NCBI GenBank assembly: GCA_023397655.1
Contig: JAEWTW010000057.1
Coordinates: forward strand, 50,842 to 114,841
DNA: 64,000 bases
DNA from: Bacillota bacterium
GTDB taxonomy: Bacteria > Bacillota > Clostridia > Christensenellales > SZUA-584
Direction of reading: 5' to 3'
Part shown: in pieces, positions 23,377-42,096 of the stretch
Numbering within the stretch: position 1 is the first letter of the stretch
Layout of the letters: each line of letters begins with the position of its first letter
The notes under the pieces: model-generated
What the model was told of the DNA's origin: nothing
Database searches by the model: none
Seen by the model: the letters and a program-made list of their open reading frames with translations, nothing else
Made by a program: the position numbers and the translations under genes

Positions 23377-26300
23377 ATGGCGAAAAACGAACCATTACAC
23401 GACAATGAGCTGAGAATTCAGCGCGGCACGCTGGACGACAACCACAGCGCGGACACCCGTATGTACCGCGACATGCTGGCGGACAGCGACGCGGCGTATG
23501 AGGCGCTCAAAACGCAGGCGCGCATCGACAGGGCCCTCTCTGAGCTGGCGGGGGGCCCTGCCCGCTCCTCCGCAACGCTGAAAGCCCGCGAGATGAGCGC
23601 GCTGCGCAACGAGCTGGGCGACACCGAACGGCAGCACGAGCGCTTCGCCGACAACGTGGACTACGCGCTGGCGGGCCTTGCCCGCAAAAAGGACGCGGAC
23701 GAGGTGGTCGCCGAGAACATGAGCATTGCCCGTCAAGCCGCCGCGGAGATCAACCAGGGCAAATTCGACGCGGAGCTGAACCTGCAGCAGCAGTACCATG
23801 ACCTCAACAAGAAGAACAGCGTGTTCGACCAGATGTATAAGCTGTATACCAAGCGGCTGGTGGGCAAGGACGCGTTCAAGGCCATGACGGGCATAAAGGT
23901 GAAGGCGATGCCGAAGCCAAAGGTACATCATGCACCTAAGCCGACAATCATTTCAATGGGCAGCAAAGAGCCGGCAGCGCAGGCGGGGTACACCGTAAAG
24001 ACTGCCTATCATCCGATGACGGGGGCAAAAACATACTATTTGGTCAAAAACGAAACCGCAAAAGGCATGGACGAAAACGGCGTCAGCTTGCAGGACAAAA
24101 CTGGAAAGGTGAAGGCAGAACCTGAATTGTATTTGGAGGTGAACATTGACGGATATAAGGACGCGGACAGCGCTGAGCAGCTGGCAATCATTCAAGAGAA
24201 TAAAGATGATATTGTTGTACGCTACGGTGAAGATTTTTATAAGTTGCTGACGTCACATCTGACGACAATGGACATAGTTGAGCAGGTATATGATCCGGCA
24301 GATGTGTGGGCGATCGGCTCAGCGTTCAATCAGTTGCTTCTGGCATCAAACGACGATGAATGGCAAGCTGCTGCCGAGGGGTATAAAGCGGCGGTAGACA
24401 CTGGCGAAGAAAACCTGAGGAATACGTATAAAGGTGAGCCAAGCTGGAGTAAAACTATTCAGCTTATACCTGATATGGAGGAATTCCAATATGATGAGAG
24501 CAATTTAGACGACAAGAGAAGAAAGTATGCGGACAAGCCGCCGGCTGCGGTAACGAGCGAAGCGCTGGCAAGCAAATTCAAAGAACGCTTTGGGGTTCTG
24601 GACGGAGACCCGCTCAAGGATGCGTTTGATGAACCCGAATTGGCGGCGCTAAACATCGACTGGTCCCAACTTTCGGTTGATCAGCTGCTGGCTGTTGGCA
24701 CGTATTTGTCTGCGAACCAAACTAAAGGGGGAAGCACAACAGAAACTGATGAGAAGTTAGACCAGCTGATCCAGGAAGGAAAGAACATATTTGAGGTTGT
24801 TACATATCGGTATATGGACAGCGTCATACAAGTCAGGAATTCGATGGAGGACGACGAAACAAGGAAGAAGCGCCAGGAAGATGAAAACGAAAGGATAATG
24901 TGGGGCGATCTTTCGACTCAGGATAGATTTAACAACGCGGTGGCGGACATTAAACAATACCAGAAAGATTATCAAGAATATACCTTCTATGTGAATTACG
25001 ATGTTGATGCCGCGAAACAGGAATTGGATGATACGAATGAGCAACTGAATGATGCGGCATCGGATCTTTTAAACTTTATGGACAATGAAGGTTATGGTGA
25101 AACCAAGAGGGTGCTTGGTTTATCGGATGAAGCTTTTAATGAAATCAGAGGAAAAATGAATGCTAATAATGATTTTGAAGCGCTAAAGACTTTTAACAAT
25201 CTGATAGATGCGATGGATATGTATCAAGATCAGGCGAATCTAATTGAGACAGATATCATTATGGCGGAAGAATGGAAGAAGAGGGACAAAAAGTATAAGT
25301 ACGAAGATGGCATCCTCGGGATGGAAGATTTAACCGCGACATCCCTGCAAGGCGCACAGATAAAGAATCCAAAAGTCATTGATTTAATGTTTGGAACCGG
25401 CGAAGTAAAAAATGTGTATGTATTCGCAAGTTTTCTGAACAGCGACACGGTAATGGACGAGCTGATGAGCGCTGAGGTCGGCGAACGCGGAGGTGATACC
25501 GAAGACCTGTATGAATGGATAGAAACGCAACGCGTCATTTATGAGAAATATACATACATGACGGATACTGAAAAAACCGTTTACAACTACCTGCTAAAAA
25601 AAGAAGGTGATTCCAGCGCTAATGATTATCTGAAAATGATCGATGAATCGCTGAATATGAGGCAGGGCTTGGCTGAAGCTTCGGCGCTGGAAGGCAAGCC
25701 GGTGGCACAGGTATTGTACAGTTTTGGCGCAGGTCTTGACAGCTTTGGATCAGGCATCCGGCAGCTGTTTTCCAGCGACAGGCTATCCACAACTGCCACG
25801 CAATTTGCCTCAAATGCGATATATCAAGATCTGGCGGGCGACGACCCCGACAGCGTGAGTTTTGGACAGCTGCTTTATAATACAGGCAACATGGCCGGAT
25901 ATATGGCGCCCGTCATATTATTGAATGTCGCGACGGCTGGTACGACAATTCCGGCGACTGTTACTGCGCAGATTGGCTCTACAGTGATGGCATTGAGCGC
26001 CACGGGCAATGCCTATAATCAGGCGCTGGGGCAAGGCTATACGAAGGGAGAAGCACGGCTTGAGGCACTACTCACCGGGCTGTATACTTACGCGACCAGC
26101 CAGGCTATGTTCTCCGGGCTGCAGAAGGTGGTGGGATTAGCGTCGGGAATGACCGGAGCTACTTTTGGGCAGCAAATTGCAAAATTAGCTGTGTTGACTT
26201 TCGGTTCGATGGAAGTAGCATTTACAAGAGGGACGCAAATCACGCTTGTTAAGAACATTGCTGAGGCACTACTGATGGGAGACAAGTCTGGATTTGCGCA

Positions 26301-27891
26301 ATCCATTGCAATGTATCAGAATCGTGGGTTTAGCCAAAAAGAAGCGACAGGGCTGGCTTTCATCGACTGGTTTTTTACCAATCCGCTCGAAACCGGTGGT
26401 AAAATGGGCGCAATGGCGGGGCTCTCCGTTTTCCCGGCTGCCGCAAGAACGGCATACGGTGCGATGAACGCAGCTGGTGAACAGATATACGGGCAGCCTC
26501 TGCTGACAGCGGGTGGGCAGACAGCAGGTGCGGCACAGAACTCGGCTGCATCCACAGCCTCTGCTGCCTCTACAGCATACCCCGCGTCTGCCACTTCCAC
26601 CGCGCTGACGCCGGTCTATGGCGGAACGTCAATGCCCTTACAGCCGTTTACAGGAACGGCGCCTGAACTGACGGCAATCGGCGCAGGGGGATACGCGGGA
26701 CGCACGAGCATGCCTCAAACGAACGGCACATATGACAACACGCCGATGTTGCCCGCAGGTTTCAGGCAGATGGGACTGAGCGATGATGCCGCGGATTTCG
26801 CAGCTAAACTGGATGCTTATCTGATGAAGCTGCCAGCTCCGAAGAGCGACGGCAAAGCACCTGAAGAGCTTACACCCTACACAGGCGGGCTGACCCTGCC
26901 GCCAGCGGCCGCCGCCATAAAAGCGCCGTCCAACGTGGCCAGAGGCGTGGGCGACACAGCCGAAGAACTGCAGGCGCTGTCGGACAAAACATCGCTTGAC
27001 CTGTTTGACGAGAACGTGCGGAACAAATATTTCGGGTTCGCGCTGGACGGCACGCTGGGCAAAGCCAAATCGATGTATGACGCCTCCCTTCAAAGCCTGG
27101 AAAACGGCATAGCGCAAAGCGCGCCGCAGCCCGCGGCGGAGCTGATGCAGCAGGCGGATGTGGTGGAGAGGCGGCTGGGCGAGGTGTATGAGGCAGCGGG
27201 AGTAAGCAAAGGCTATTCTCCTGAAACGAACACATCACAACCACAGATTACATCGGACCCCCCCGCCACAGACGTCGGCACCCTGTTCAGCGACTATTTC
27301 GACGCCATCGGCGCGGACGAGATGCCGCCGTTTGCTGAGTTCGGGAAGATGTACCGCAAAGGTGGGGACGCGTGGAAGGAGCTGACGCTGAAGAAGGGCT
27401 GGAAGGATGCGCTGAAGAGCGGCGAAGTTGAGCCTTTTACGCGGTTTGAAGACTATAAGGCGACGGCGGGCGTGGACGGAAATGGAGGAATGGGATATAA
27501 TGAAGGGCAAGAGTTTTCCGAACGTATAGAGTTTAACCTTGTTGAAATTGTTGATTCTGATACAGGAAAGTTCATAATAAAGGATTGGAGTGAATATCCA
27601 GATGATTACGTTCCATTACCTGACAAATCTAAAGTATGGGTATTCGTAGAGGGAGAGGAATATGAACAATCAAGGAAACAAGCAAATGAGGTTAATAAAA
27701 ATTTGAGATTGGGAGATCGTTATTACAGCGATAATAGATTGGAAATTCACGAGATAGAACCTGTTAAATTTGGCGGTAGTCCAACAGATTTAGCTAATAA
27801 GGCTGCTATTCAAGGACAGGTTCATAGGAAATACGTTACTCCGTGGTGGAATAAAATACGAGATGAAATAAAGAGAGGATTGGATAAATAA
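23377..27891 (+). CDS. Polymorphic toxin, 1504 aa: novel N-terminal coiled-coil domain, AT-rich middle, Gly/Ala-rich hydrophobic region, pre-toxin region, HNH/EndoVII-type nuclease tip
   Basis: RBS GGAGGA. No signal peptide (MAKNEPLHDNELRIQRG). The tip motif is LEIHEIEPVKFGGSPTDLANKAAIQGQVHRKY. An immunity gene follows 4 nt downstream. Several internal segments are copied in the downstream cassettes. Confidence 0.85.
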   Translation: MAKNEPLHDNELRIQRGTLDDNHSADTRMYRDMLADSDAAYEALKTQARIDRALSELAGGPARSSATLKAREMSALRNELGDTERQHERFADNVDYALAGLARKKDADEVVAENMSIARQAAAEINQGKFDAELNLQQQYHDLNKKNSVFDQMYKLYTKRLVGKDAFKAMTGIKVKAMPKPKVHHAPKPTIISMGSKEPAAQAGYTVKTAYHPMTGAKTYYLVKNETAKGMDENGVSLQDKTGKVKAEPELYLEVNIDGYKDADSAEQLAIIQENKDDIVVRYGEDFYKLLTSHLTTMDIVEQVYDPADVWAIGSAFNQLLLASNDDEWQAAAEGYKAAVDTGEENLRNTYKGEPSWSKTIQLIPDMEEFQYDESNLDDKRRKYADKPPAAVTSEALASKFKERFGVLDGDPLKDAFDEPELAALNIDWSQLSVDQLLAVGTYLSANQTKGGSTTETDEKLDQLIQEGKNIFEVVTYRYMDSVIQVRNSMEDDETRKKRQEDENERIMWGDLSTQDRFNNAVADIKQYQKDYQEYTFYVNYDVDAAKQELDDTNEQLNDAASDLLNFMDNEGYGETKRVLGLSDEAFNEIRGKMNANNDFEALKTFNNLIDAMDMYQDQANLIETDIIMAEEWKKRDKKYKYEDGILGMEDLTATSLQGAQIKNPKVIDLMFGTGEVKNVYVFASFLNSDTVMDELMSAEVGERGGDTEDLYEWIETQRVIYEKYTYMTDTEKTVYNYLLKKEGDSSANDYLKMIDESLNMRQGLAEASALEGKPVAQVLYSFGAGLDSFGSGIRQLFSSDRLSTTATQFASNAIYQDLAGDDPDSVSFGQLLYNTGNMAGYMAPVILLNVATAGTTIPATVTAQIGSTVMALSATGNAYNQALGQGYTKGEARLEALLTGLYTYATSQAMFSGLQKVVGLASGMTGATFGQQIAKLAVLTFGSMEVAFTRGTQITLVKNIAEALLMGDKSGFAQSIAMYQNRGFSQKEATGLAFIDWFFTNPLETGGKMGAMAGLSVFPAAARTAYGAMNAAGEQIYGQPLLTAGGQTAGAAQNSAASTASAASTAYPASATSTALTPVYGGTSMPLQPFTGTAPELTAIGAGGYAGRTSMPQTNGTYDNTPMLPAGFRQMGLSDDAADFAAKLDAYLMKLPAPKSDGKAPEELTPYTGGLTLPPAAAAIKAPSNVARGVGDTAEELQALSDKTSLDLFDENVRNKYFGFALDGTLGKAKSMYDASLQSLENGIAQSAPQPAAELMQQADVVERRLGEVYEAAGVSKGYSPETNTSQPQITSDPPATDVGTLFSDYFDAIGADEMPPFAEFGKMYRKGGDAWKELTLKKGWKDALKSGEVEPFTRFEDYKATAGVDGNGGMGYNEGQEFSERIEFNLVEIVDSDTGKFIIKDWSEYPDDYVPLPDKSKVWVFVEGEEYEQSRKQANEVNKNLRLGDRYYSDNRLEIHEIEPVKFGGSPTDLANKAAIQGQVHRKYVTPWWNKIRDEIKRGLDK
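23798..23919 (+). repeat. Recombination anchor A (codes DLNKKNSVFDQMYKLYTKRLVGKDAFKAMTGIKVKAMPKP)
   Basis: Near-identical nucleotide copies lie at 40697-40819 (cassette 10) and 41948-42096 (terminal remnant). Confidence 0.85.
27058..27503 (+). repeat. Recombination anchor B (pre-toxin region ending in GVDGNGGMGYNE)
   Basis: Copies lie at 29527-29966 (cassette 3, full length), 28425-28548 (cassette 2, with an internal ~160-nt deletion) and 30886-30950 (cassette 4, 5' part only). Confidence 0.85.
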
Positions 27892-27895
27892 TACT

Positions 27896-28312
27896 ATGGA
27901 ATTTCTAAATGAAGATCTCTTTAAGAATTTCAATTTTCAAAGAGATGAAAAAAATACCGAAAGTCAAATAGGTAATGCCGAATTAGAGTTAGGAATTAAG
28001 TTTCCTGAAGGGCTTAGAGGTATTTTAAAACAATACAATGGAGGTAGCGGACAAATTGGGAAATCCTATTTAGATTTATGGAGTTTGGAAGATATTGTAG
28101 ACTTCTATCAAGAAAACATGGAAACTGATGCATATATTTTAGTACCGTTTGCCTCGGATGGTTGTGGTATGTCCTTTACTTTAGTTAAAGAAAATACAGA
28201 AATTAGAATTGTACCGATGGATTCTTTGGAATATGAGTATTCAAAAAAATGTAGTAATAATTTTGATGAATTTATTAATGAAGTGTATTCTGGCAACCTA
28301 GTAGAATACTAG
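27896..28312 (+). CDS. SUKH/SMI1-KNR4 family immunity protein (cognate of the HNH tip)
   Basis: 138 aa and AT-rich. LELGIKFPEGLRGILKQYNGG ... LVPFASDGCGMSF is typical of the SMI1_KNR4 fold. Confidence 0.8.
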   Translation: MEFLNEDLFKNFNFQRDEKNTESQIGNAELELGIKFPEGLRGILKQYNGGSGQIGKSYLDLWSLEDIVDFYQENMETDAYILVPFASDGCGMSFTLVKENTEIRIVPMDSLEYEYSKKCSNNFDEFINEVYSGNLVEY

Positions 28313-28362
28313 CGTTGAACAAAATAAAAACGTGTAAGTAAAAAAGATTAGCTAAATATTTA

Positions 28363-28391
28363 GGCCGGAAATTACTATTTCGGCTTTTTTT
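28363..28391 (+). terminator. Cassette-boundary hairpin terminator 1
   Basis: GCCGGAAAT-TACT-ATTTCGGC (one bulge) followed by TTTTTTT. Confidence 0.55.
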
Positions 28392-28511
28392 CTTTAAACG
28401 GAATTTGAAATCAAATGAAGATAAAACAAACACACCGGCTGAACCTTCCACCCCAAGCCCCCTGCCACAGACGTCGGCACCCTGTTCAGCGACTATTTCG
28501 ACGCCATCGGC

Positions 28512-28898
28512 GTGGACGGAAAGGGGGCAATGGGATATAATTCATTTGATAAGTCAAATCAAGGAATAGTAAGACCTCAACAAGTTAAGAAGTTAATAGA
28601 TTGGCTAGATAATGATAAAGAATTGTTAAATGAAGTTTCAGAGTGGTTTAAGGAAAAACCAGAATGGTGGGGAATTGATCCGGAGAATACTGATGTGTTT
28701 TATAGACCACCACAAGAAGTAAAAGAGATTAGATCAAAAGCAGGCGAAAGCGGAGGGCATCATCCACATGGATTGGCACTTGGAGGGCCAGAAGGACAGA
28801 GACTTACCCCGACAGGTGAAACAGCAATGATAAAGAATCCAACACATAGCCAAGTAACCGGTTTGCAAAGACGCGTACTTAATAGAATAAAAAAGTAG
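28512..28898 (+). CDS. Orphan toxin tip, cassette 2: GHH-type HNH/EndoVII nuclease
   Basis: GESGGHHPHGLALGGPEGQRLTP...NPTHS motif. It is preceded by an anchor-B copy from 28425. It has no RBS of its own, and the 'start' is an in-frame GTG inside the anchor. Confidence 0.7.
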   Translation: MDGKGAMGYNSFDKSNQGIVRPQQVKKLIDWLDNDKELLNEVSEWFKEKPEWWGIDPENTDVFYRPPQEVKEIRSKAGESGGHHPHGLALGGPEGQRLTPTGETAMIKNPTHSQVTGLQRRVLNRIKK

Positions 28899-28925
28899 AT
28901 TATAAAATAGGAGGAGACAAACAAG

Positions 28926-29411
28926 ATGTGTAATGATTTTATTTACTGGGCTAAAGATCATGGATGGGATATAGTTATTAAATCTGATGCTCTTCTTGAA
29001 TTAAACAATAACATTACTTCAAGATATGGAAGTATACCTCGTAGCTATATTAAGTTTTTAAAAAAGGTTAAGAGATGCATATCACCTGGTGAGAAAACAT
29101 GGTTTTTATGTGAAGACGAGTACAATAATAACTCGGATATAGCATTTAAATGGAACGAATTTGAGATATTAAGTCTTGAAGTAGCCAAGAATGATAATGA
29201 GTGGAAATATGAAATAGCCTCATGGTGGGATAGGTACTTACCAATAGTTTTGTCAGTTGATGATGGATATTCTTTCTTCGCTATTGATTTAGCGAATGAT
29301 ATAGGGACTATCGTACAAGGATTTGAACCTGAATTCGAAGAGGTGGAGAAAATAGCAAATAGCCTAGAAGATTTTTTCAGATTAATTATGAGTAATGCTA
29401 TTAAAATTTAA
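28926..29411 (+). CDS. SUKH/SMI1-KNR4-like immunity protein (cassette 2)
   Basis: RBS GGAGGAG. 161 aa and AT-rich. YGSIPRSYIKFLKK ... YLPIVLSVDDGYSFFAID pattern. Confidence 0.7.
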   Translation: MCNDFIYWAKDHGWDIVIKSDALLELNNNITSRYGSIPRSYIKFLKKVKRCISPGEKTWFLCEDEYNNNSDIAFKWNEFEILSLEVAKNDNEWKYEIASWWDRYLPIVLSVDDGYSFFAIDLANDIGTIVQGFEPEFEEVEKIANSLEDFFRLIMSNAIKI

Positions 29412-29488
29412 AAACAAAAAATCAATGCTTTAATAATGCGTGTGAAGCGGTAGATAAGGAGAACTATAACTAGTTAATATAATACTTC

Positions 29489-29517
29489 GCCGGGCGTTGC
29501 CCCGGCTTATTTTTTTG
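29489..29517 (+). terminator. Cassette-boundary hairpin terminator 2
   Basis: GCCGGG-CGTTG-CCCCGGC followed by TTATTTTTTT. Confidence 0.7.
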
Positions 29518-29537
29518 CCATCGGAAAGGCCAAATCG

Positions 29538-30331
29538 ATGTATGACGCCTCCCTTCAAAGCCTGGAAAGCGGCATTGTGCAAAGCGCGCCGCAGCCCGCG
29601 GCGGAGCTGATGCAGCAGGCGGACGTGGTGGAGAAACGGCTGGGCGAGGTGTACAAAGCGGCGGGAGTGGGAAAAGGCTATTCGCTGAAAACGAACACAT
29701 CACAACCACAACTTACATCGGAAGCCTCCGCCACAGACGTCGGTACCCTGTTCAGCGACTATTCGACGCCATCGGCGCAGACGAGATGCCGCCGTTTGCG
29801 AAGTTCGAGAAGATGTACCGCGAAGGCGGGGACGCATGGGAAGAGCTGTCGCTGAAAAAGGATTGGAAGGATGCGCTGAAGAGCGGTGAGGTTGAGCCTT
29901 TTACGCGGTTTGAAGACTATCAGGCGACGGCGGGCGTGGACGGAACGGGGGGAATGGGATATAATGAAACCGTCAATGTTGATACATTTGACTTTGGCAA
30001 ATACCTGAGGGGTAAGATTGGGGATCCGCCTGCTGATATGGCTGACCCGCACGCCCATCACATACTTTTCAAAAAAGGGCTTGGACCTGCGCAGCAAGCG
30101 TTGGTTCAAGAAGGACAGGCGATTTTGTGGCGAGTTGGAATTAATCCAACCTTCGGCTTAGAGAACCTAGTGTGGGCGCCGAACAGGGTAGTGGGGCAAC
30201 ACGATATTGAAGCGCTGAGAAATGTTTTGAAGCAGTTGAGAGAAGTGGAGAAATATGGTGGAGATTATGATGATATGAGTGAGGCACTGAAAAAACTGGG
30301 TGATCTTGCGGCCAAAAGGAGGAAAAGCTAA
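29538..30331 (+). pseudogene. Orphan toxin tip, cassette 3: AHH-type HNH/EndoVII nuclease, frameshifted within the anchor
   Basis: ORFs 29538-29855 and 29786-30331 are one reading unit split by a missing T (GACTATTCGAC at ~29757-29767, versus GACTATTTCGAC in the main gene). The tip motif is DPHAHHILFKKG. Confidence 0.7.
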
Positions 30332-30832
30332 ATGGATTTGTTACCAGTTGCAAAGGAAATAAGAACTGCAATAAAGCAAGGAGATGCTGAAAAGGTTAAG
30401 GAGTTAATTGCGGATAATAAAGACCTTTTAAATTTACTGACTCCGTTCGGCACTTGGGTGCATGTTGCTTCGTCCCGAGGAAAACTAGATATTGTGATAC
30501 TCCTTATAGATATGGGTATCGATATAAATATAAGCGCAGGTATGTTTGGAGGGACAGCAATTAATGAGGCGGCAAATGAAGGAAATCTCGAAATTGTAGA
30601 TTATCTGCTTTCTTGTGGTGCTAAATTGGACACATCTGAGCCAGAAAAGAATCCTCTATTTAGTGCAATATTGAGTGGGAATAAAGACATAGTCCAACTA
30701 CTGCTGAACAACGGGATTGACGCTTCCGTCAGGTATACAGGGGAATATATGAAAGATATGGATGCTTATGATTTTGCCATAGAGCGCGGGCAGAAAGAAA
30801 TTGCCGAAATGCTGAAACCATACAGGAAATAA
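30332..30832 (+). CDS. Ankyrin-repeat immunity protein (cassette 3)
   Basis: ATG abuts the toxin TAA, and the RBS AAAGGAGGAAAA lies inside the toxin 3' end. Ankyrin units: GTWVHVASSRGKLDIVILLIDMGIDIN, TAINEAANEGNLEIVDYLLSCGAKLD, NPLFSAILSGNKDIVQLLLNNGID. Confidence 0.8.
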   Translation: MDLLPVAKEIRTAIKQGDAEKVKELIADNKDLLNLLTPFGTWVHVASSRGKLDIVILLIDMGIDINISAGMFGGTAINEAANEGNLEIVDYLLSCGAKLDTSEPEKNPLFSAILSGNKDIVQLLLNNGIDASVRYTGEYMKDMDAYDFAIERGQKEIAEMLKPYRK

Positions 30833-30851: not shown

Positions 30852-30879
30852 GCCGGGCGTTGCTCCGGCTTATTTTTTT
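30852..30879 (+). terminator. Cassette-boundary hairpin terminator 3
   Basis: GCCGGG-CGTTG-CTCCGGC followed by TTATTTTTTT, nearly identical to terminator 2. Confidence 0.7.
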
Positions 30880-30974
30880 GCCATCGGCAAAGCCAAATCG
30901 ATGTATGACGTCTCCCTTCAAAGCCTGGAAAGCGGCATTGCGAAAAGCAGCTCACCGCCGAAACGATCGATGGA

Positions 30975-32528: not shown

Positions 32529-32543
32529 AAGGAGTAACATATT

Positions 32544-33129: not shown

Positions 33130-33156
33130 GCCGGGCGCTGTCCGGCTTTTTCTTTT
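33130..33156 (+). terminator. Cassette-boundary hairpin terminator 4
   Basis: GCCGGG-CGCTGT-CCGGC followed by TTTTTCTTTTC. Confidence 0.65.
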
Positions 33157-33206
33157 CTTGACCCCAAAATCGCATCGACATCCCCGACGGCAAAACACTG
33201 GCGGAC

Positions 33207-34121: not shown

Positions 34122-34452
34122 TGAAGCAAGGGAAAATATAAGAATAGTAAGAAAAATAGCAGAAAATATATGGGATGGAAAATGTAGCTTTGGTGATATA
34201 AAAGTTACCAATTCACCATACGCTGAATTTATAATGCCATTGATTCTTTATAATAGCGTTAACGTAATACTGACATATGATCGCTCTATATTAGGAATTG
34301 CAATTAAGCAGGAAGGAGGAGAAATATGGCTAGATGATTTAACTACTCAGTTAGTTTATGATGGTTTTGAGAGCTGCAAGCCAGAAAACATAGAACATAA
34401 TTTTAAAATATTGGATACGATAGCTCGGGAAATAATTAATAGAGAAATTTAA
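34111..34452 (+). CDS. Putative immunity protein (cassette 5)
   Basis: ATG 34111 follows GGAGGA and overlaps the toxin stop (34119-34121) by 11 nt. 113 aa and AT-rich. Confidence 0.6.
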   Translation: MLDDEARENIRIVRKIAENIWDGKCSFGDIKVTNSPYAEFIMPLILYNSVNVILTYDRSILGIAIKQEGGEIWLDDLTTQLVYDGFESCKPENIEHNFKILDTIAREIINREI

Positions 34453-34629
34453 ATAAATAAGTAAATAACATTTACAGCCTGAGTTATTTTATATTAACGC
34501 AGGCCTTTTTTATCTAAATTGGGAGCTAATCACCGTGAACGCAGGAACGAAATTTGTTTTAACGATATTAAGGGTCAGTAAGAGTGTGTAACATATACCT
34601 TTGACCCACAGAGGACAATCAGCGCCGCT

Positions 34630-35304
34630 ATGGAAGCGGATTTCAATGTCAGAATACGCGGTATGATGGACGAAGCATATGCGGCGGGCGAGGGCGGATT
34701 ATCTGCGGGAGAGTTTGCACAAGGCAAAGGCGTTCCCGGCACATTCACGGATGCGGACGCGGCTGGCATGACGATGAAGATGGACGGAGAGGGGGATGTT
34801 GGGTATAATGGAGGGCAAGGAAATAAAGATGTATTACCTGATGCTTTAATTCGCGGAGATGATATGCCTTATTCTGAAAAGAGGCCAAATGGTATATCAA
34901 AGTCTCATTTAACATCTGAGGGTGATCTTGCTCCTGCAAACATTAAAGGACAGTATAAAGGAAGAATGGTCACGGTTGCAGAACATATTCTCGGTGGCTA
35001 TAGGAAAGGGGCTAAGGGAAATAGCCCGTATACGAGTTTTACATATGAGGACGGGATTGTAACTAATTATGGGAACAATGTTATCCAAGTCAATTTAAAG
35101 GAGATCATTGATGATATTGTGAATGGGAAACTCAAAGGTGTTGAGGTGTTGACTCCAAGCCATGTACAAGCCGCAATTCTATCTGACGTCCAATTAAACG
35201 ATTACTGGAGAAATCTAGCTATAAAATGGACTAGGAGAGATAATGAGTGGCTAATAAAGGGCATGATACCCAGAAAATACTTAACAATAATGGAGGACGC
35301 ATAA
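34630..35304 (+). CDS. Orphan toxin tip, cassette 6: possible ART-fold (H-Y-E-like) toxin
   Basis: Frame is open from 34582. An anchor D copy is followed by a tip with AEHILGG, SPYTSFTYEDG and RRDNEWLIKGMIP. The ART assignment is tentative. Confidence 0.5.
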   Translation: MEADFNVRIRGMMDEAYAAGEGGLSAGEFAQGKGVPGTFTDADAAGMTMKMDGEGDVGYNGGQGNKDVLPDALIRGDDMPYSEKRPNGISKSHLTSEGDLAPANIKGQYKGRMVTVAEHILGGYRKGAKGNSPYTSFTYEDGIVTNYGNNVIQVNLKEIIDDIVNGKLKGVEVLTPSHVQAAILSDVQLNDYWRNLAIKWTRRDNEWLIKGMIPRKYLTIMEDA

Positions 35305-35579
35305 TGGAAATCTTATTTAAAAAAGAAACGATAGGCAAGATAGAGAATACATATAGAGAAGATTACTGGGTACACGGCAATTTCATCCCATATATTTCAT
35401 ATTTGAAGTATAAAGATTTTCTCGATGCGGTTGTTTGTGAAGATGGGATGGACGAAACTCAATTCGATAAAGCGTTACTGGACGAGAAAAATTGGTTTAT
35501 TGTAGATAGAGATGAACTCAAGGAGATATGGATACCAGCTATTTACGCTGACGGCGATATATCAATTAGGTATAGATAA
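35304..35579 (+). CDS. Putative immunity protein (cassette 6)
   Basis: TAATG overlap with the toxin stop. RBS GGAGGA. 91 aa. Confidence 0.6.
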   Translation: MEILFKKETIGKIENTYREDYWVHGNFIPYISYLKYKDFLDAVVCEDGMDETQFDKALLDEKNWFIVDRDELKEIWIPAIYADGDISIRYR

Positions 35580-35635
35580 AGCCGGTCTCTTCTTCAATAA
35601 TCAGTACAAAACCTAATAATATATAAATTTAATGA

Positions 35636-35666: not shown

Positions 35667-35828
35667 TATATCTTCGCTAACATGAACAGAACCTTTTAGT
35701 TCGGGCTGTTTACACGAGGTAAAAGCGGCAACACCTATACAGACCCGCAGACCGGCAAGCCCATCGACATTCCCGACGGCAAAACGCTGGCGGACATCGA
35801 CCCCGAAGCAGCCAGCTTTTACAAAGGC

Positions 35829-36674
35829 TTGGGCGAAACGCGAATGGATGGCGAACTGCACAATGCCATGGGAGACATATATTTGAGTTATATGGATATT
35901 CCCGAAAGTGTGGTGTCACGCTCGGAATTCGCACCGCTTGAAATAGCATACCGCAACTACGAAGCAAACCCGACGGTAGCGAACGCAGCAGCTTTTATCG
36001 ATGAAGCCGGGAAGGTGCAGCGTATAGCGGTTGGTAATGGGTATAGCGTGGACAGCCCGAATGTGAAGGTTAATGCGGCGATGGAGGCGGATGCGGCGAA
36101 GCGGTTGGGGACGGCTGGTGCATATTCTGAGCGCGTTGACAGTTTCGCAAATATAGAAGATAATAACAATAAAAATATTGGTGTGTTAAAGAAGAAAAAT
36201 GTTACCCAAGTTGCATATGGCGAGCAATATATTAAAGGAAAGAATGGACGAAAAGAACTAAAATCCAATGTAGCTTATACGACTGCTGATGGTTACAAAT
36301 ACTCGACGGATGAACTTGGGCGTATTGATGAAGCGGACGGAATGCTTGTCAGAGGCGATGGCAAAAGAAATGAGTATGCGCAAAGTATCATTGGTCGAGA
36401 AGATAGACTGCCAACGGATGATGGAGGGCATCTTATTGCCAGAATATTTAAAGGTTCTGGGGATATTGACAATCTGGTGCCAATGGATGCGACATTAAAC
36501 CGCGGTGATTGGAAGGCAATGGAGAATACATGGAAAAGGGCACTTGATGAAGGTGGCGAAGTGAGAGTAAAAATTAGACCTATTTATGAAGGCTCATCAA
36601 CAAGGCCAGTTTCTTTTGTGGCAAAGTATAGTATTGAAGGACAAAACATGAAGATTGTTGTATTTGATAATTAA
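35829..36674 (+). CDS. Orphan toxin tip, cassette 7: EsaD/YeeF-type DNA/RNA non-specific endonuclease (Endonuclease_NS_2)
   Basis: DDGGHLIARIFKGSGDIDNLVPMDATLNRGDWKAMENTWKRALDEGGEVRVKIRPIYEGSSTRP is a close match to the EsaD/YeeF-CT pattern. The anchor C copy starts at 35700. Confidence 0.8.
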   Translation: MGETRMDGELHNAMGDIYLSYMDIPESVVSRSEFAPLEIAYRNYEANPTVANAAAFIDEAGKVQRIAVGNGYSVDSPNVKVNAAMEADAAKRLGTAGAYSERVDSFANIEDNNNKNIGVLKKKNVTQVAYGEQYIKGKNGRKELKSNVAYTTADGYKYSTDELGRIDEADGMLVRGDGKRNEYAQSIIGREDRLPTDDGGHLIARIFKGSGDIDNLVPMDATLNRGDWKAMENTWKRALDEGGEVRVKIRPIYEGSSTRPVSFVAKYSIEGQNMKIVVFDN

Positions 36675-36684
36675 GGAGACAAAA

Positions 36685-37155
36685 ATGATTGATGAAAGAA
36701 ATCTAACAAAATACTATCAAAGTATTGCTGAGAAATTAGATGATATAGTTCCTTTCGAATGGGACGAGATAGTTATGTATGGTGAAGAATTTGGAGATGT
36801 CAGAACTGCTTGTTTGTACTATAAACAAAAAGGAAAAGAAAATTATAGATCAGGCGGGCTAATTCCAAGTGAAAATTCTGTAGATGCTGATATTTATGCA
36901 GGATTAGTATATGAATTGATTCAAATAAATAAAAGATTGTGGAAAGAATTTTTGGATGCAGAGATACCGTTATGGGTAACAATTACTTTTCATTTATCCT
37001 CCGATTATCATTTTAAAGTTAAATTTGGATATGAAGCAAATAGGGAATTAAGCAGTACAGAACGAGAAATACACTGGGCATATAATGAGCTTGGGATAAT
37101 ACCTGAAGATGGTTTTTCCAAAAAAATACTTGAAGAATACTTATCTGGAAATTAA
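36685..37155 (+). CDS. DUF600/YezG(EsaG)-family immunity protein (cassette 7)
   Basis: RBS AAGGAG. YYQSIAEKLDDIVPFEWDEIVMYGE...ACLYYKQ matches the DUF600 N-terminal pattern. This family is the known partner of EsaD/YeeF-type nucleases. Confidence 0.75.
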   Translation: MIDERNLTKYYQSIAEKLDDIVPFEWDEIVMYGEEFGDVRTACLYYKQKGKENYRSGGLIPSENSVDADIYAGLVYELIQINKRLWKEFLDAEIPLWVTITFHLSSDYHFKVKFGYEANRELSSTEREIHWAYNELGIIPEDGFSKKILEEYLSGN

Positions 37156-37176
37156 ATAAGGATACTAATGCTTGTA

Positions 37177-37210
37177 GGCCGGAGAGAAAAACTTTCCGGC
37201 TTTTTTATTT
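37177..37210 (+). terminator. Cassette-boundary hairpin terminator (after cassette 7)
   Basis: GCCGGA-GAGAAAAACTT-TCCGGC followed by TTTTTTATTT. Confidence 0.7.
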
Positions 37211-37267
37211 GCTGACCCGCAAACCGGCAAAGCCATAGACAGCCCCGACAGTAAAACGCTGGCGGAC

Positions 37268-38230
37268 GTGAACTCCGAAGCGGCCAGCTTTTACAAGGGG
37301 CTGGGCGACACAAAGGTCACCGGCGAACTGCACAGCGCCATGGGGGACATCTACATGAATTACTTGGATATCCCCGAAAGCGTGGTATCCAATACGGAAT
37401 TCGCGCCGATGGAGACAGCCTATCGCAACTACGAAGCGAACCCGACGATAGCCAATGCCGCAGCGTTCATCAATGAGGCGGGGAAGGTGCAGCGTATAGC
37501 GGTAGGCAATGCGGCGATGGAGGTGGATGCGGCAGGGCTGGGGACGCAGACTGAGATTGGCGTTGAGGCCACTGACATAGGAGTTAAGACAACTGATATT
37601 GGAGCCAGTGCAACGGATGTCGGGAAGAATGCAACGGACATCGGAGCGACAGCGAAGGCATATGTTGACAGTGGAAGTGGTGCGGGGGATAATGGGAGTA
37701 TACAGAAAGCTGTTGATCACCTTGAGAAATTTGCAGTTGATAATGGTGTAGGGAAATTTTCGTTAAGTACTGAACAGATACTGAAACTATCCGGTGGCAA
37801 TATAGATTTAGCTGAAAGATTGATGCTAGCGACGAAAGAGGTGTTACCAGGAAGGTCAGTCTCAGAATTAGCCCAGATGTACGATTTACCAAATAATCCT
37901 GATCCCGCTTCACTTACAACATATGAAGTACGTATCTGGTATTTATGGCAAGAGTCACAATTCAACAGCAGATTGGATTATAGCAAGCCACTTGAACAGG
38001 TTGCATATGATGCTTTTAATATGAGAAACGAGACAAGGACAAAAGCAAGGGATGTGATGATGGACAGGGCTTGGGCAGATCACTTAATGGAAGGTGAGAA
38101 AAATAAGACGTTTGAGCAAATTGTTAATTATTATAACAAGAAAAAATATACAGGGAATGAATTATGGAAAAAAATAATTGAAAGTGCAACAAGATCAAGG
38201 GATAGTGTGAATAAATTATTTGGCTTATAG
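37268..38230 (+). CDS. Orphan toxin tip, cassette 8: unassigned helical toxin domain
   Basis: Anchor C copy from 37213, then DIG repeats, then the AT-rich tip from ~37690 (TYEVRIWYLWQESQF...NMRNETRTKARDVMMDRAWADHL...SATRSRDSVNKLFGL). Confidence 0.6.
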   Translation: MNSEAASFYKGLGDTKVTGELHSAMGDIYMNYLDIPESVVSNTEFAPMETAYRNYEANPTIANAAAFINEAGKVQRIAVGNAAMEVDAAGLGTQTEIGVEATDIGVKTTDIGASATDVGKNATDIGATAKAYVDSGSGAGDNGSIQKAVDHLEKFAVDNGVGKFSLSTEQILKLSGGNIDLAERLMLATKEVLPGRSVSELAQMYDLPNNPDPASLTTYEVRIWYLWQESQFNSRLDYSKPLEQVAYDAFNMRNETRTKARDVMMDRAWADHLMEGEKNKTFEQIVNYYNKKKYTGNELWKKIIESATRSRDSVNKLFGL

Positions 38231-38240
38231 GAGGCTGTTT

Positions 38241-38549
38241 ATGGAAAAAAAATTGATTGAAGCTTTTGAACATGACTATGTAGAATACCATTTTGTTGAA
38301 TTTGATGATGGTATGGACTTTATCAGAATCACAGAGATCATAAAAGACAAAATTGGTCCGGATAAAATGGATTACCAAGGAATTGAAGATATGCATGGTT
38401 TTTTTGAGAAAGATAACCTCCATGTTGATTTAGAATACGATGGAATGATCGGTAATTGGATGGAGTTTAAAGGCGAACAATCGGAAAGAAATTTGGAAAA
38501 AGTAAGAGAATGGGCAAAAATAGTATTTGAAAACTTGATGGAAGTATAG
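38241..38549 (+). CDS. Putative immunity protein (cassette 8)
   Basis: ATG 38241 follows AGGAGG. 102 aa, acidic and AT-rich. Confidence 0.6.
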   Translation: MEKKLIEAFEHDYVEYHFVEFDDGMDFIRITEIIKDKIGPDKMDYQGIEDMHGFFEKDNLHVDLEYDGMIGNWMEFKGEQSERNLEKVREWAKIVFENLMEV

Positions 38550-38590
38550 AACTTAATTAGTTCCTTTCTGCCGTAAAATGGCTTTTATAT

Positions 38591-40257
38591 ATGTTGTTTT
38601 CGCCGGGTTTTTCCCCGGCTTTTCTTTTACCAGAAACGCCAACGACAATACCTATATTGATCCCGCAAACCGGCAAGCCCATTGACATCCCCAACGGTAA
38701 AACGCTGGCGGACATCGACCCCGAAGCAGCCAGCTTTTACAAAGGCTTGGGCGAAACGCAAATGGATGGCGAACTGCACAATGCCATGGGGGACATATAT
38801 TTGAGTTATATGAACATTCCCGAAAGAGTGGTGTCCAACACGGAATTCGCACCGATGGAGACAGCCTACCGCAACTACGAAGCGAACCCGACGGTATCGA
38901 ACGCGGCGGCGTTCATCAATGAGGCGGGGAAGGTGCAGCGTATAGCGGTAGGCAATGGGTATAGTGTAGACAGCCCGTATACGAGGGTAAACGCGGCGGT
39001 AGAGGCGGATGCGGCAGGACTGGGAGTGAAGACTGAGATTGGCGTTGGGGCCACTGACATAGGAGCAACAGCAACAGATATTGGAGCCAGTGCAACGGAT
39101 GTCGGGAAGAATGCAACGGACATCGGAGCGACAGCGAAGGCATACGGCGTATGCAATGGTTACAGGCTTCTTTACAAGTCTTATCATGGAGGCTGGACCC
39201 ACTGTCCGAAGCGAGATCAGCAATGCCAAGGCAGGCCGCGGCGTCATCGAGTCCGGAAAATATCAGGAGCTGATGGACAACGCACTGATGCTGGACCCGA
39301 AGACAGAGGCGTATCGGACAGCAAAAGGCATACAGGACGGCAGCATCCACGCAAACGATTACAACGTGGGCGCGCTGCTGCGGGCATACGTGGACGTCAC
39401 AGGAGAGGCGGCGTTCATGCGCGATATGTCACAGATCATGAAGACGCCTGTCAGCACGGCGGAGCGGTTTGTTGATATGTTATCCCGTCTGAACCAGAAC
39501 GCCAAGGCATCCCCCGCGGTAACCGATGCTATCAGCAACTATATCACAACGATGCAGGACCTGGGCGACGCCATACCGGCCAATGTGCAGGACGCCGTTA
39601 TGGAGGCATACCGCACATTCGAGGCCGACGGCACAAACAACAACGCGTTGACAGTGATTCAGACAGCGCTGCAAAGCATCGACAGCGCCATCATGCAGGG
39701 ATTACAATCCGGCACTGATGTGACGGGGCTGCTGACCCTGCGCAGCCAGATGGAAAGCGGTCTGAGCGGGAGCATACAAAAAGGCATCTTTGCTTCCAAG
39801 GCGGTCAACACCAAAGTCATGGCGGACGCGGTGACGACGCTGCTGAAGCTGCCCGCGGATGTGCAAGCAGCGATAGACATTGATGCGCTGTCACAGGCGT
39901 ACTACGACTACCTGACGGCGGGTAAGAAGGGCAAGACGGAGGCGGAGGCCAAAGCGGTGGATGCACTGTTCACCAAGAAAAGGTGAACCAGGCCAATTAT
40001 TGATAGATCCTGATGCTTCCTTTAGCGCTTTACAGCACGAATTAAGCCATTTTATTCAGGCTCAAAGACAGGGCTTTCCTTCGGCAGTTGAGAAATATGA
40101 GGATTGGAATGGTAGAATTGCTGATGAGTATAAGGCTTACAGTATAGAAATCTCAGAGGCTAAAGAATTGGGATTAGAAAATGTAGTAAAGCAATTACAA
40201 AAAAACTTTGAAGCCGAGAAACAATATATTATTGAACGTTATGGACCAATAAACTAA
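38591..40257 (+). pseudogene. Chimeric orphan, cassette 9: anchor C + DIG repeats | GC-rich fragment of another cargo | anchor E | HExxH metallopeptidase-like tip; three reading frames
   Basis: ORFs 38591-39475, 39081-39986 and 39961-40257 carry the meaningful sequence in successive frames. The breaks are at ~39146 (a sequence junction after TAKAY) and at the A4 run 39978-39981. The tip is GEPGQLLIDPDASFSALQHELSHFIQ. Confidence 0.6.
38602..38628 (+). terminator. Cassette-boundary hairpin terminator (after cassette 8)
   Basis: GCCGGG-TTTTT-CCCCGGC followed by TTTTCTTTT. Confidence 0.7.
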
Positions 40258-40278
40258 CAATAGAAAGGAGAGCTACCT

Positions 40279-40632
40279 ATGTCAATGTCTGAAATGTATC
40301 AAAAGCTTAAGAACAATACAATAAATAATGATGAGCTTATTACTTGTCTTAAATCCGAAAACTATAGAATAGTAGCAATATCGATATCAAGATTAATCGA
40401 AAGGAATATAAGTAATCAAGATGCAGTTAGTAGACTCGAGAAATTAAGCAATCTTCTATCAAACAGTAAATTTGTCGGGCCATGGCAAATGGGGCATTTT
40501 GCTATAGCTGCCTTACTGTTACTAAAAAACAATAACGTAGAAAATAGAGCAAAAGAATTATATGATAAACTTAGCGAAAAAGATAAGTTTTTAGTTGATA
40601 ATTTTATTAAGGCAGAAGCCTACAAACTCTAA
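40279..40632 (+). CDS. Putative immunity protein (cassette 9)
   Basis: RBS AAAGGAGAG. 117 aa, AT-rich and helical. Confidence 0.6.
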   Translation: MSMSEMYQKLKNNTINNDELITCLKSENYRIVAISISRLIERNISNQDAVSRLEKLSNLLSNSKFVGPWQMGHFAIAALLLLKNNNVENRAKELYDKLSEKDKFLVDNFIKAEAYKL

Positions 40633-40651
40633 CGTATTAACTATTTCTATG

Positions 40652-40680
40652 CCGGGCTTTGCCCCGGCTCTTTCTTTTCT
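40652..40680 (+). terminator. Cassette-boundary hairpin terminator (after cassette 9)
   Basis: GCCGGGC-TTT-GCCCCGGC followed by TCTTTCTTTTC. Confidence 0.7.
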
Positions 40681-40732
40681 GTCACGGAACTAATACCATG
40701 ATCTCAACAAGAAGAACAGCGTCTTCGACCAG

Positions 40733-41641
40733 ATGTATAAGCTGTATACTAAGCGGCTGGTGGGCAAGGACGCATTCAAGGCGATGACGGGCATTGAGGT
40801 AAAGGCTATGCCGAAGCCGCATAGGAATGTGCGTAAGCCAAATATGATTGCAGTCAGCAAGGATTGGAAAGGGACGCCTCCAAAAGGCTATAAGATGCGC
40901 GGCAGCTACGACAAGAACACCAAAGCGATGGCCGACGCCGTGACGACGCTGCTGAAACTGCCCGCGGATGTACAGGCGGCGATAGACATTGATGCGCTCT
41001 CACAATCGTACTACGACTTCCTGACGGCGGGCAAAAAGGGCAAGACGGCAGCGCAGGCCAAAGCGGTAGAGATGCTGTTCACAAGTGTGGAAGCGGCGAT
41101 AGCGTCGGGCAAGCTGGATGCGGCGTCGGTGCAGCAGTTACAAGGGTTGTTGGCGGAGATTGACAGCAAGAAGAGCGTGGGGGATAATGTAAGTGAATTT
41201 GAAGTGAGTGCTGCTAAGTACGCAGGTGGTCGTATAAGAATAGACACCAGAAAATTTACGACCGAAGAGTATTCAGAGTATGAAGAAATAGGGGATCAAA
41301 TGTATGACAATATCAGAGATACGCGAGATGATGTTGATAAAATAGCGAAAAACACCGGATGGGACAGAGTTAAAATTCAAGCAATCAAAAGTCATTTGTT
41401 TTTTGAAAAGCATTTGTTCGACGATGGAGAAATAAGGCTATTTGATTCGGACTATTGGCAAGCTGAAGCTTGGATAAGGATGACGGTAGGTAATATGACA
41501 GAGTTAGACGAAGTGCTCTTAAAACACGAATTCTTTGAATTGGAATATATTAGAGAGCATAAATGCACCTATGAAGAAGCCCATAAGAGGCAACAAAGCT
41601 ATATGACTGGTATGGACAAATGTTCATTGGGTAGGTCTTAG
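40733..41641 (+). CDS. Orphan short alternative toxin body, cassette 10: anchor A + anchor E + unassigned tip
   Basis: It starts inside an anchor A copy (40697-40819) and shares KAMADAVTTLLKLPADVQAAIDIDALSQ.YYD.LTAGKKGKT with cassette 9 (40919-41085 versus 39811-39975). The AT-rich tip begins at ~41200 (IKSHLFFEKHLFDDGEIRLFDSDYWQAEAWIRM...LLKHEFFELEYIREH). Confidence 0.6.
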   Translation: MYKLYTKRLVGKDAFKAMTGIEVKAMPKPHRNVRKPNMIAVSKDWKGTPPKGYKMRGSYDKNTKAMADAVTTLLKLPADVQAAIDIDALSQSYYDFLTAGKKGKTAAQAKAVEMLFTSVEAAIASGKLDAASVQQLQGLLAEIDSKKSVGDNVSEFEVSAAKYAGGRIRIDTRKFTTEEYSEYEEIGDQMYDNIRDTRDDVDKIAKNTGWDRVKIQAIKSHLFFEKHLFDDGEIRLFDSDYWQAEAWIRMTVGNMTELDEVLLKHEFFELEYIREHKCTYEEAHKRQQSYMTGMDKCSLGRS

Positions 41642-41654
41642 AAAGGAGTAAAAT

Positions 41655-41900
41655 ATGTCACTATATGTAATTATTGAAAAGGTATATGAGAATGAAAAGC
41701 AAGTTGTTTATAATTTTGGGCCTAGCCCGAACTCTTTTGAAAAGTTAGTGATCAACAAAGAGACTGGGGAGATAAATAGACTCGAAACATCAGTAAACAA
41801 TCCGAACTATTATTATCTTAAAGCAGTAGCCAAATTGAATAGGCACATAAAGAGTAATCCTTCAGACCAATATCCAGACAAATTAATATATGCATCATAA
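41655..41900 (+). CDS. Putative immunity protein (cassette 10)
   Basis: RBS AAAGGAG. 81 aa and AT-rich. Confidence 0.55.
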   Translation: MSLYVIIEKVYENEKQVVYNFGPSPNSFEKLVINKETGEINRLETSVNNPNYYYLKAVAKLNRHIKSNPSDQYPDKLIYAS

Positions 41901-41911
41901 TTTTTCGGTTC

Positions 41912-41938
41912 GCCGGGCTTGCCCGGCTTTTTCTTTTC
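41912..41938 (+). terminator. Cassette-boundary hairpin terminator (after cassette 10)
   Basis: GCCGGGC-TT-GCCCGGC followed by TTTTTCTTTTC. Confidence 0.7.
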
Positions 41939-41947
41939 TATCGCGGG

Positions 41948-42096
41948 GAACTGGGCCTCAAAAAGCAGTATCACGAGTTGAACAAAAAGAACAGCGTGTT
42001 CGACCAGATGTATAAGCTTTACACCAAGCGGCTGGTGGGCAAGGACGCGTTCAAGGCAATGACGGGCATCGAGGTGAAGGCGATGCCGAAGCCGCA
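41948..42096 (+). pseudogene. Terminal anchor-A remnant with no toxin tip (right edge of the island)
   Basis: It codes ELGLKKQYHELNKKNSVFDQMYKLYTKRLVGKDAFKAMTGIEVKAMPKPH, then runs into unrelated sequence just upstream of the GH3 gene. Confidence 0.7.

Follow-up and report, generated by a model that had tools for sequence, protein, structure and literature searches.

Orphan toxin modules associated with CdiA, the toxin of contact-dependent growth inhibition (CDI), and with Rhs proteins, as well as polymorphic toxin systems in general, have been described previously (PMC3150448, PMC3482391). Here we analyzed a locus of this kind in a 64,000-nucleotide (nt) stretch of DNA (contig JAEWTW010000057.1, positions 50,842 to 114,841; hereafter the window) from an uncultured gut-type Bacillota bacterium. 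It comprises a 1504-amino-acid (aa) toxin gene with its immunity gene, followed by nine 5'-truncated orphan toxin/immunity cassettes (cassettes 2 to 10) and a terminal stub of a repeated segment named anchor A, all in direct orientation:

23377-27891 (+): expressed polymorphic toxin gene, 1504 aa (open reading frame, ORF; homologues P0001-P0004)
27896-28312 (+): immunity gene of the expressed tip, SUKH/SMI1_KNR4 (Pfam PF09346, 1.9e-15)

The region makes up the variable portion of a chromosomal locus for a polymorphic (interbacterial) toxin. Measured against the description of such systems by Zhang et al. 2012, a constant N-terminal/body part carries a variable C-terminal tip, every tip is followed by a predicted immunity gene or a small ORF (SUKH twice, ankyrin, SitI3 and YezG could be named), the 5'-truncated cassettes are homologous to the full gene either directly or through cassette 4 or 10, and an orphan tip occurs on a full-length gene elsewhere (that of cassette 3, on P0001).

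The locus resembles the orphan cdiA-CT/cdiI modules of CdiA (PMC3150448) in that a full-length toxin gene precedes 5'-truncated tip/immunity pairs, the length of homology to the upstream gene varies and some modules have none to the local gene, homology stops at a short conserved motif (VENN in CdiA, the junction motif described below here), and orphan tips are found on full-length genes of other strains; 'reloading' by deletion, together with its cost, has also been proposed there already. It differs from CdiA in its Gram-positive-type Bacillota host, in an N-domain and body with no Pfam match, in orphans that reach back to the N-domain so that whole bodies can be stored, and in a junction motif that is also promoter-like. 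CdiA/CdiB two-partner secretion was considered and rejected: Pfam gave only a CdiA_C tip in cassette 4, and neither filamentous haemagglutinin (FHA) repeats nor CdiB were found in the window, nor was VENN. With the C-terminal displacement of Rhs/YD proteins (PMC3150448, PMC3482391) the locus shares the stacking of new tips before displaced ones, core fragments of varied length, a conserved demarcation motif (DPxGL in Rhs) and islands that are allelic between strains with homologous flanks. Its architecture is different, however, with no YD/RHS repeats and no PxxxxDPxGL, and membership of the Rhs/YD group was rejected for lack of any RHS Pfam match in the 1504-aa protein.

Type VII (LXG) toxins (PMC9484751, PMC10350083) are likewise found in Bacillota and have a long helical N-terminal targeting domain, a small helical partner gene just upstream, polymorphic tips, SUKH- and YezG-type immunity, downstream orphan toxin fragments or strings of immunity genes, and recombination between tandem paralogues. 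Unlike in LXG loci, the partner here is a paralogue of the toxin's own N-domain, and a holin-like gene heads the operon. Assignment to LXG toxins and a type VII secretion system (T7SS) was also rejected, as there was no LXG (PF04740) Pfam match, no fold support, and no EssC-like or other T7SS gene within the 64-kb window. Silent-cassette gene conversion at Neisseria pilE/pilS copies sequence at high frequency without destroying the donor. That system is similar in having one expression site and many promoterless partial copies that share conserved segments, whereas the geometry here favours deletion, several donors are frameshifted, and no variation was seen within the strain (at the level of consensus assemblies).

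The cassette logic itself, in which orphan tip/immunity pairs recombine via conserved upstream sequence, is textbook polymorphic-toxin biology. Three aspects exceed the routine. The toxin family is essentially undescribed. Storage of modules reaches several depths, the deepest being an orphan of 1201 aa with body and tip, and natural alleles break exactly at those depths, which makes the locus a clear example of how such toxin arsenals get assembled. Finally, the motif at the tip boundary reads equally well as peptide and as promoter. With a probability of about 75%, we read it as a polymorphic-toxin island in which the traces of RecA-type exchanges with modules acquired horizontally are stacked, the immunity genes being the likely selected cargo.

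The initial annotation, made from the letters of the window alone, had proposed at least five nested homology anchors that would allow multi-tier cassette switching. We examined them by blastn self-comparison of positions 22000-45000 and with a repeat finder, and both placed all five where that annotation had put them (63-544 nt, 73-97% identity, blastn E 1e-21 to 1e-172):

23789-23918 (+): anchor A, last ~130 nt of the N-domain coding sequence; matches 40694-40818 (92.8%, E 9e-48) and 41964-42093 (91.5%)
26845-27504 (+): conserved pre-toxin zone containing anchor B (identity profile against the main gene of locus L002)
27058-27504 (+): anchor B; matches 29523-29968 (89.9% over 447 nt, E 1e-172)
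27259-27319 (+): part of anchor B shared with cassette 2; matches 28458-28518 (96.7%, 61 nt), plus a 33-nt piece
27058-27120 (+): part of anchor B shared with cassette 4; matches 30886-30948 (93.7%, only 63 nt)
31496-31805 (+): anchor C, in cassette 4; matches at 33173, 35699, 37214 and 38641 (73-84% over 220-286 nt)
31838-32069 (+): anchor D, in cassette 4; matches 34593-34824 (84.5%)
39807-39973 (+): anchor E, in cassette 9; matches 40916-41082 in cassette 10 (86.8%)

Cassettes 2, 3, 4 and 10 match the main gene, and cassettes 5-9 match cassette 4 or 10. Anchor A recurs as proposed, with a small correction to the cargo that its use would swap (aa 182-1504, about 1320 aa, instead of ~1300). 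The recurrence of anchor B held at full length for cassette 3, the copies in cassettes 2 and 4 being short (61+33 nt and 63 nt, respectively). The blastn results also agreed with the placement of anchors C and D inside orphan cassette 4 with recurrences downstream, with the joining of cassettes 9 and 10 by anchor E, and with the statement that cassettes 5-9 lack an acceptor in the expressed gene, as no copy of C, D or E matched 23377-27891. Moreover, cassettes 5, 7, 8 and 9 were correctly described as closer to one another (78-88% over 300-544 nt) than to cassette 4. Every anchor copy is direct, and no inverted repeat of at least 40 nt was found in 20000-45000. As judged from these alignments, the anchors are conserved gene parts and true homology blocks, namely the end of the N-domain (A) and pre-toxin linkers (B-E), the latter derived from at least three different gene-body lineages, which we would assign to types represented by the window gene and P0001, by P0003 and by P0004.

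Comparison with relatives indicates how the anchors have been used in evolution. Locus L003 belongs to the same species as the window and occupies the same place in the chromosome: its positions 1-10548 match window 13375-23924 at 96.8%, ending exactly with anchor A, and homology resumes at 41909, in the terminal anchor-A stub, at 94.8%. Between these points L003 has 6.6 kb and the window 18 kb, with nothing in common except one copy of anchor E, and the L003 main gene (P0003) differs wholly from the window gene in both body and tip. The whole island from anchor A to the terminal stub is allelic between these sister strains. L002 is a more distant relative with a gene body about 72% identical. 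The initial annotation had suggested looking in related strains for a downstream tip fused to the main gene, and L002 supplies one: the cassette 3 tip and its ankyrin immunity gene form the expressed end of P0001 (1501 aa). None of the other tips was found on full-length genes elsewhere in databases that hold few relatives.

The window gene, P0001 and P0003 share the N-domain and differ in tip, and identity collapses after 27504. When codon-aligned with the L002 main gene, positions 26845-27504 have a nucleotide identity of 0.84-0.95 and a synonymous third-position identity of 0.81-0.92, vs 0.45-0.78 and 0.5-0.7, respectively, for the gene body. Copies of anchor B are 88-95% identical regardless of genome, and the main copy in the window resembles those of L002 (93%) more closely than it does the copy in its own cassette 3 (90%). 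Anchor-B-led orphans also occur elsewhere (P0100, P0101, P0103 and P0104), as do further anchor-A-led orphans (P0033, P0054 and P0075).

A lost or off-window acceptor for anchors C and D had been postulated as well, and such a gene does exist: P0004, an orphan of 1201 aa in L001, opens with the hairpin and anchor A, and in its C-terminal third aa 774-1088 align with aa 55-372 of the cassette 4 ORF at 51% identity over 324 aa (E 2e-88), anchors C and D included. P0043 is a full-length gene with a C/D-type pre-toxin linker. In addition, the entire cassette 7, tip and YezG immunity gene together, is 77% identical to L001 9888-11343, and the divergent lineage L024 has the same locus architecture. 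Over 14.7 kb (P0034 and the sequence downstream of it), loci L025 and L026 share 99.86% identity, yet they carry unrelated neighbouring toxin ends and orphans upstream (L025 1-7290, L026 1-6672). Taken at the level of alignments, these comparisons demonstrate that anchors coincide with natural recombination breakpoints, at which modules have been exchanged between strains and species. Both L025 and L026 also contain two full-length toxin genes in tandem, and the point at which they diverge lies at a repeat of ~200 nt, which is found at the close of the array too (L025 6023-6233, 7290-7492 and 16169-16378).

The cassettes follow a common layout of terminator hairpin, conserved gene piece, junction motif, toxin tip and immunity gene, all on the + strand:

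28455-29411 (+): cassette 2; 61-nt and 33-nt anchor-B remnants, tip ORF 28512-28898, SUKH immunity gene 28926-29411 (blastn, Pfam)
29489-30832 (+): cassette 3; hairpin 29489-29506, anchor B 29523-29968, AHH-like nuclease tip ending at 30331 (a weak AHH match), ankyrin immunity gene 30332-30832
30852-33044 (+): cassette 4; hairpin, 63-nt anchor B' 30886-30948, 517-aa ORF 30975-32528 with anchors C and D and a CdiA_C tip, SitI3 immunity gene 32544-33044 (blastn, Pfam; SitI3 from a precomputed Pfam match)
33130-34452 (+): cassette 5; hairpin, anchor C, tip ORF 33207-34121, immunity candidate 34075-34452
34593-35579 (+): cassette 6; anchor D, tip ORF 34630-35304, immunity candidate 35247-35579
35699-37155 (+): cassette 7; anchor C, Endonuclea_NS_2 tip 35829-36674, YezG-like immunity gene 36655-37155 (Pfam 1.8e-34 and 1.1e-28)
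37176-38549 (+): cassette 8; hairpin, anchor C, tip ORF 37268-38230, immunity candidate 38220-38549
38602-40632 (+): cassette 9; hairpin, anchor C, fragment of another gene body with anchor E 39807-39973, HExxH tip 39961-40257, immunity candidate 40279-40632
40651-41900 (+): cassette 10; hairpin and anchor A 40694-40818, anchor E 40916-41082 within a short linker, tip ending at 41641, immunity candidate 41655-41900
41912-42107 (+): terminal stub; hairpin and anchor A 41964-42093, running into the GH3 promoter region (blastn)

All ten immunity ORFs are intact, as are seven of the nine orphan tip ORFs. In cassette 3 a single nucleotide is deleted inside anchor B, near 29763; in cassette 4 the 63-nt anchor meets the 517-aa ORF at an A4 run (30942-30950), where the frame is off by one base; and cassette 9 has two frame breaks, an out-of-frame join near 39150 and a second break near 39980, before the HExxH tip. 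The same stub stands before GH3 in L003 (17141-17338) and L013, and by this comparison it marks where the variable island ends on the right. Short (x)ATDIG peptide repeats were also seen just 5' of the junction motif in cassettes 5, 8 and 9 (33540-33640, 37550-37604 and 39040-39140), and Tandem Repeats Finder reported a period of 21 and 2.6 copies at 37550-37604.

A feature beyond the anchors of the initial annotation is a terminator-like hairpin, GCCGGGC-N-GCCCGGC followed by a T-run, which lies directly before anchors of the A, B and C types and, within the window, is confined to the array. The terminator scan gave these copies:

28362-28386 (+): variant; terminator after the expressed immunity gene
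29489-29506 (+): hairpin, cassette 3
30852-30869 (+): hairpin, cassette 4
33130-33146 (+): hairpin, cassette 5
37176-37202 (+): variant, cassette 8
38602-38619 (+): hairpin, cassette 9
40651-40668 (+): hairpin, cassette 10
41912-41927 (+): hairpin, terminal stub

The hairpin probably acts as a terminator and moves together with the cassette junction. Cassettes 3 and 4 have the same sequence at its junction with anchor B, T-run included, as three L002 orphans do, so that this junction is identical in two species; one terminator-anchor B junction has been propagated.

To examine whether the cassettes can be loaded in this strain, sequences were joined at homologous positions and the reading frame was followed, with the following outcomes:

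Main gene x cassette 10 (anchor A): reads through, 454 aa
Main gene x cassette 2: reads through, 1440 aa
Main gene x cassette 3: in frame only with a crossover 3' of the 1-nt deletion near 29763
Main gene x cassette 4: fails, stop at 30978
Main gene x terminal stub: 217-aa stub
Cassette 4 x cassettes 5, 6, 7 and 8: read through
Cassette 4 x cassette 9: fails, the frame breaking near 39150 and again near 39980

Cassettes 2, 3 and 10 are thus predicted to be loadable in frame in this strain, and cassette 4, cassettes 5-8 via cassette 4, and cassette 9 are not. The idea that cassettes 5-9 could be installed after cassette 4 was borne out in part: cassettes 5-8 are in frame with cassette 4, whereas cassette 9 is frame-broken and cassette 4 itself is out of frame with the main gene. 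Since the fusion of the main gene with cassette 4 stops at 30978, the second tier is unreachable in this strain without an extra indel. Moreover, because all repeats are direct, intrachromosomal use of any of them is an irreversible deletion that loses the current immunity gene and the intervening cassettes, a cost that Poole et al. 2011 (PMC3150448) have set out for CDI.

These results bear directly on programmed multi-tier switching, in which a first tier would install cassette 4 or 10 and a second tier would open cassettes 5-9, so that the toxin is changed at useful frequency. Its basic ingredients are present: the anchors are long and similar enough for RecA-dependent recombination, their sequence conservation exceeds protein needs, natural breakpoints fall at them, and cassettes 5-8 are in frame with cassette 4, as cassettes 2 and 10 are with the main gene. 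Nevertheless, an operable switch is not supported, given the broken gateway in cassette 4, the frameshifts in cassettes 3 and 9, the one-way deletions and the unchanged order of the array in the contigs retrieved. Fourteen contigs encode a 190-aa neighbour protein identical to that of the window. Six of these contigs, each from a different assembly, were retrieved, and wherever they cover the window (at most 12795-33367) they match it at 99.99-100% with no rearrangement in any of them, although consensus assemblies hide minority variants. Most relatives (L024 and L002) have only a single anchor tier, and neither an inverted repeat of at least 40 nt nor a recombinase gene among the neighbouring genes (window gene tables) accompanies the array, the latter two absences also having led us to reject an inversion shufflon or other site-specific recombination. 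We consider programmed switching unlikely; the hierarchy appears largely historical, not operable, and rather than a design, the nesting is more plausibly the result of modules from three or more gene-body lineages having been stacked over time.

The orphans might instead be decaying, functionless leftovers of past replacements, with anchor similarity reflecting shared descent only. Frameshifts in cassettes 3, 4 and 9, the illegitimate out-of-frame joins in cassettes 4 and 9 and the mere 61+33 nt of anchor retained by cassette 2 are what such debris should look like, but the intact immunity and tip ORFs counted above, the retention of terminator and junction motif at almost every cassette, the conservation of anchor B across species at synonymous sites and the preservation of cassette 7 at 77% identity in another genome make it quite improbable that the array is inert. 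Least probable by far is mis-assembly of the metagenome, whether of the repeats or of the cassette order. Contigs L006, L009 and L010 do end in the locus, at or shortly before anchor A, as is typical of repeat-induced breaks, but independent assemblies from different samples and assemblers agree with the window across 12795-33367, and the repeats are inexact (73-97% identical), so no collapse is expected.

In the polymorphic-toxin island that we favour, the array would have grown by insertions. Junction identity suggests that the left crossover took place in the conserved gene, and that on the right the terminator-anchor junction of the donor recombined with the recipient's own anchor, which would push the resident end downstream. 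Two illegitimate joins, in cassettes 4 and 9, are present in this record too. The retained immunity genes would likely be the main benefit, protecting against the toxins of neighbours, and the silent tips may serve as a reservoir that is reloaded only by rare one-way deletion, by duplication-recombination, or after transfer to another strain. Several points weigh against this interpretation: consensus assemblies leave room for rare recombinants within the population, the toxin and immunity roles of the modules are predicted ones, junction identity is the sole line of evidence behind the insertion model, selection on the DNA or RNA itself, instead of recent exchange, could lie behind the strong conservation of anchor B at synonymous sites, and only two alleles of the locus were recovered for the host species.

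The 3' edge of every homology stretch is formed by the junction motif, T[TG]GAC[AG]-N17-[TG]ATAAT, which codes for [VIM]D[GSRN]x5[GE][YD]N. It has nine matches in the window vs 0.07 expected, all on the + strand and one per tip except in the degraded cassette 9:

27473-27501 (+): junction motif of the expressed tip, TGGACG-N17-TATAAT, coding VDGNGGMGYN
28513-28541 (+): orphan junction motif
29937-29965 (+): orphan junction motif
32026-32054 (+): orphan junction motif
33640-33668 (+): orphan junction motif
34781-34809 (+): orphan junction motif
36136-36164 (+): orphan junction motif
37665-37693 (+): orphan junction motif
41160-41188 (+): orphan junction motif

Across the window and L001, L002, L003, L024, L025 and L026, 36 copies (32 distinct) were collected, none of them on the minus strand. 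They fall into three classes, TTGACA/GATAAT (17 copies), TGGACG/TATAAT (13) and TTGACG/GATAAT (2), with a spacer of 17 nt throughout whose sequence varies. The residue after Asp in the TTGACA class is Ser, Arg or Asn, and its codon always starts with A, so the hexamer is kept while the amino acid varies. As a hypothesis, the motif fits a sigma-A promoter embedded in coding sequence that would transcribe the tip and immunity gene behind the terminators. We go no further than a hypothesis because the matches were selected with the same pattern and because the motif lies at a switch from GC- to AT-rich composition. The latter also weakened an argument from codon usage (the Asn of the motif is always AAT, that of housekeeping genes AAC), which was set aside, as the motif stands where AT-rich tip DNA begins. 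If the motif is a promoter, it would explain how orphan immunity genes are expressed behind terminators, a question that also arises for CDI and Rhs orphans.

The expressed protein consists, in order, of an N-terminal helical-hairpin domain, a body of ~1000 aa with a hydrophobic Gly-rich stretch, a pre-toxin linker and the toxin tip. No Pfam or NCBIfam match was obtained outside the last ~130 residues (aa 1-1370 are blank), the tip matches phrog_24166 (PHROG), and a search of the 1504-aa sequence against the PDB gave nothing below E 0.09. AlphaFold2 modelling confidently predicts the N-domain to be one long helical hairpin (predicted local distance difference test score, pLDDT, 82); searched against the PDB with Foldseek, this model matched only generic coiled coils (best E 0.76, none below E 0.001; TelA-LXG at E 2.7). 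There is no recognisable secretion signal on the toxin, and neither T7SS genes nor those of any other secretion system were seen in the window. Two small genes stand directly upstream:

22402-22794 (+): holin-like membrane protein, 130 aa, with an N-terminal transmembrane helix and a helical tail (PHROG holin phrog_36209, 3e-9; phrog_13712, 2e-7)
22795-23367 (+): stand-alone paralogue of the toxin N-domain, 190 aa (32% identity to main protein aa 8-176, E 1e-31)

The same pair lies directly before the toxin in L002 (9029-9997), L003 (9026-9991) and L024 (8890-9989), so that the trio of holin-like gene, paralogue and toxin recurs together with an orphan array in L002, L003 and the divergent L024. 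The conservation of the two upstream genes points to an export route of interest. Our literature search found no holin-linked class of polymorphic toxins, and Zhang et al. 2012 (PMC3482391) make no mention of holins. Some stand-alone N-domain paralogues elsewhere bear an N-terminal LysM-like extension (P0020).

Judged by database searches, the toxin family seems to be rare and is apparently undescribed. A hidden Markov model of the N-domain found only 89 cluster representatives among 1.84 billion, the long members of which end in Ntox15 or TNT tips. Word-indexed protein searches returned four proteins for the body, six for the C/D region and six for the B region. Among GTDB representative genomes, the family was present in only two metagenome-assembled genomes (MAGs) labelled 'Bacillota bacterium' (4 loci), and JGI metagenomes yielded one distant locus. 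One genome (MAG OH_SDB_84) contains a second toxin locus of the same family (L012 9968-16072) without its own holin-like gene or paralogue, where the orphan anchor falls in the hydrophobic part of the body (12550-12918 matches 14532-14900).

Taken jointly, these features might describe an undescribed Bacillota toxin class that is exported via the holin-like protein and the N-domain paralogue, not by T7SS, Sec or phage particles, with the N-domain, the body, and the pre-toxin linker together with the tip as three nested levels of exchange, and with a junction dual-coded as a sigma-A promoter, so that each stored cassette would transcribe its own tip and immunity gene despite the terminator. We offer this combined picture tentatively and regard it as rather doubtful in its entirety.

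The island is inserted between an Fe-alcohol dehydrogenase (Fe-ADH)/HbpS-like gene pair and a GH3 glycosidase gene. Genes for an M24 peptidase, YkuD, GGDEF, MerR, Fe-ADH and HbpS-like proteins make up the upstream flank and GH3 the downstream one. The flanks have a GC content of 55-60%, compared with about 40% for the tips. A prophage origin was rejected, as the flanks are housekeeping genes (Fe-ADH, HbpS-like, GH3) and PHROG matches were limited to the holin-like gene and the expressed tip. Several other genes in the window were noted in passing:

12474-13064 (-): Imm5_like immunity-type gene without an adjoining toxin gene, ~10 kb upstream of the toxin locus
2106-8180 (+): 2024-aa protein with Beta_helix_3 repeats, surface- or interaction-protein-like
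8277-9746 (-): Mbeg1-like protein, surface- or interaction-protein-like
45314-48874 (-): run of leucine-rich repeat (LRR) and LRR-kinase proteins downstream of GH3, surface- or interaction-protein-like

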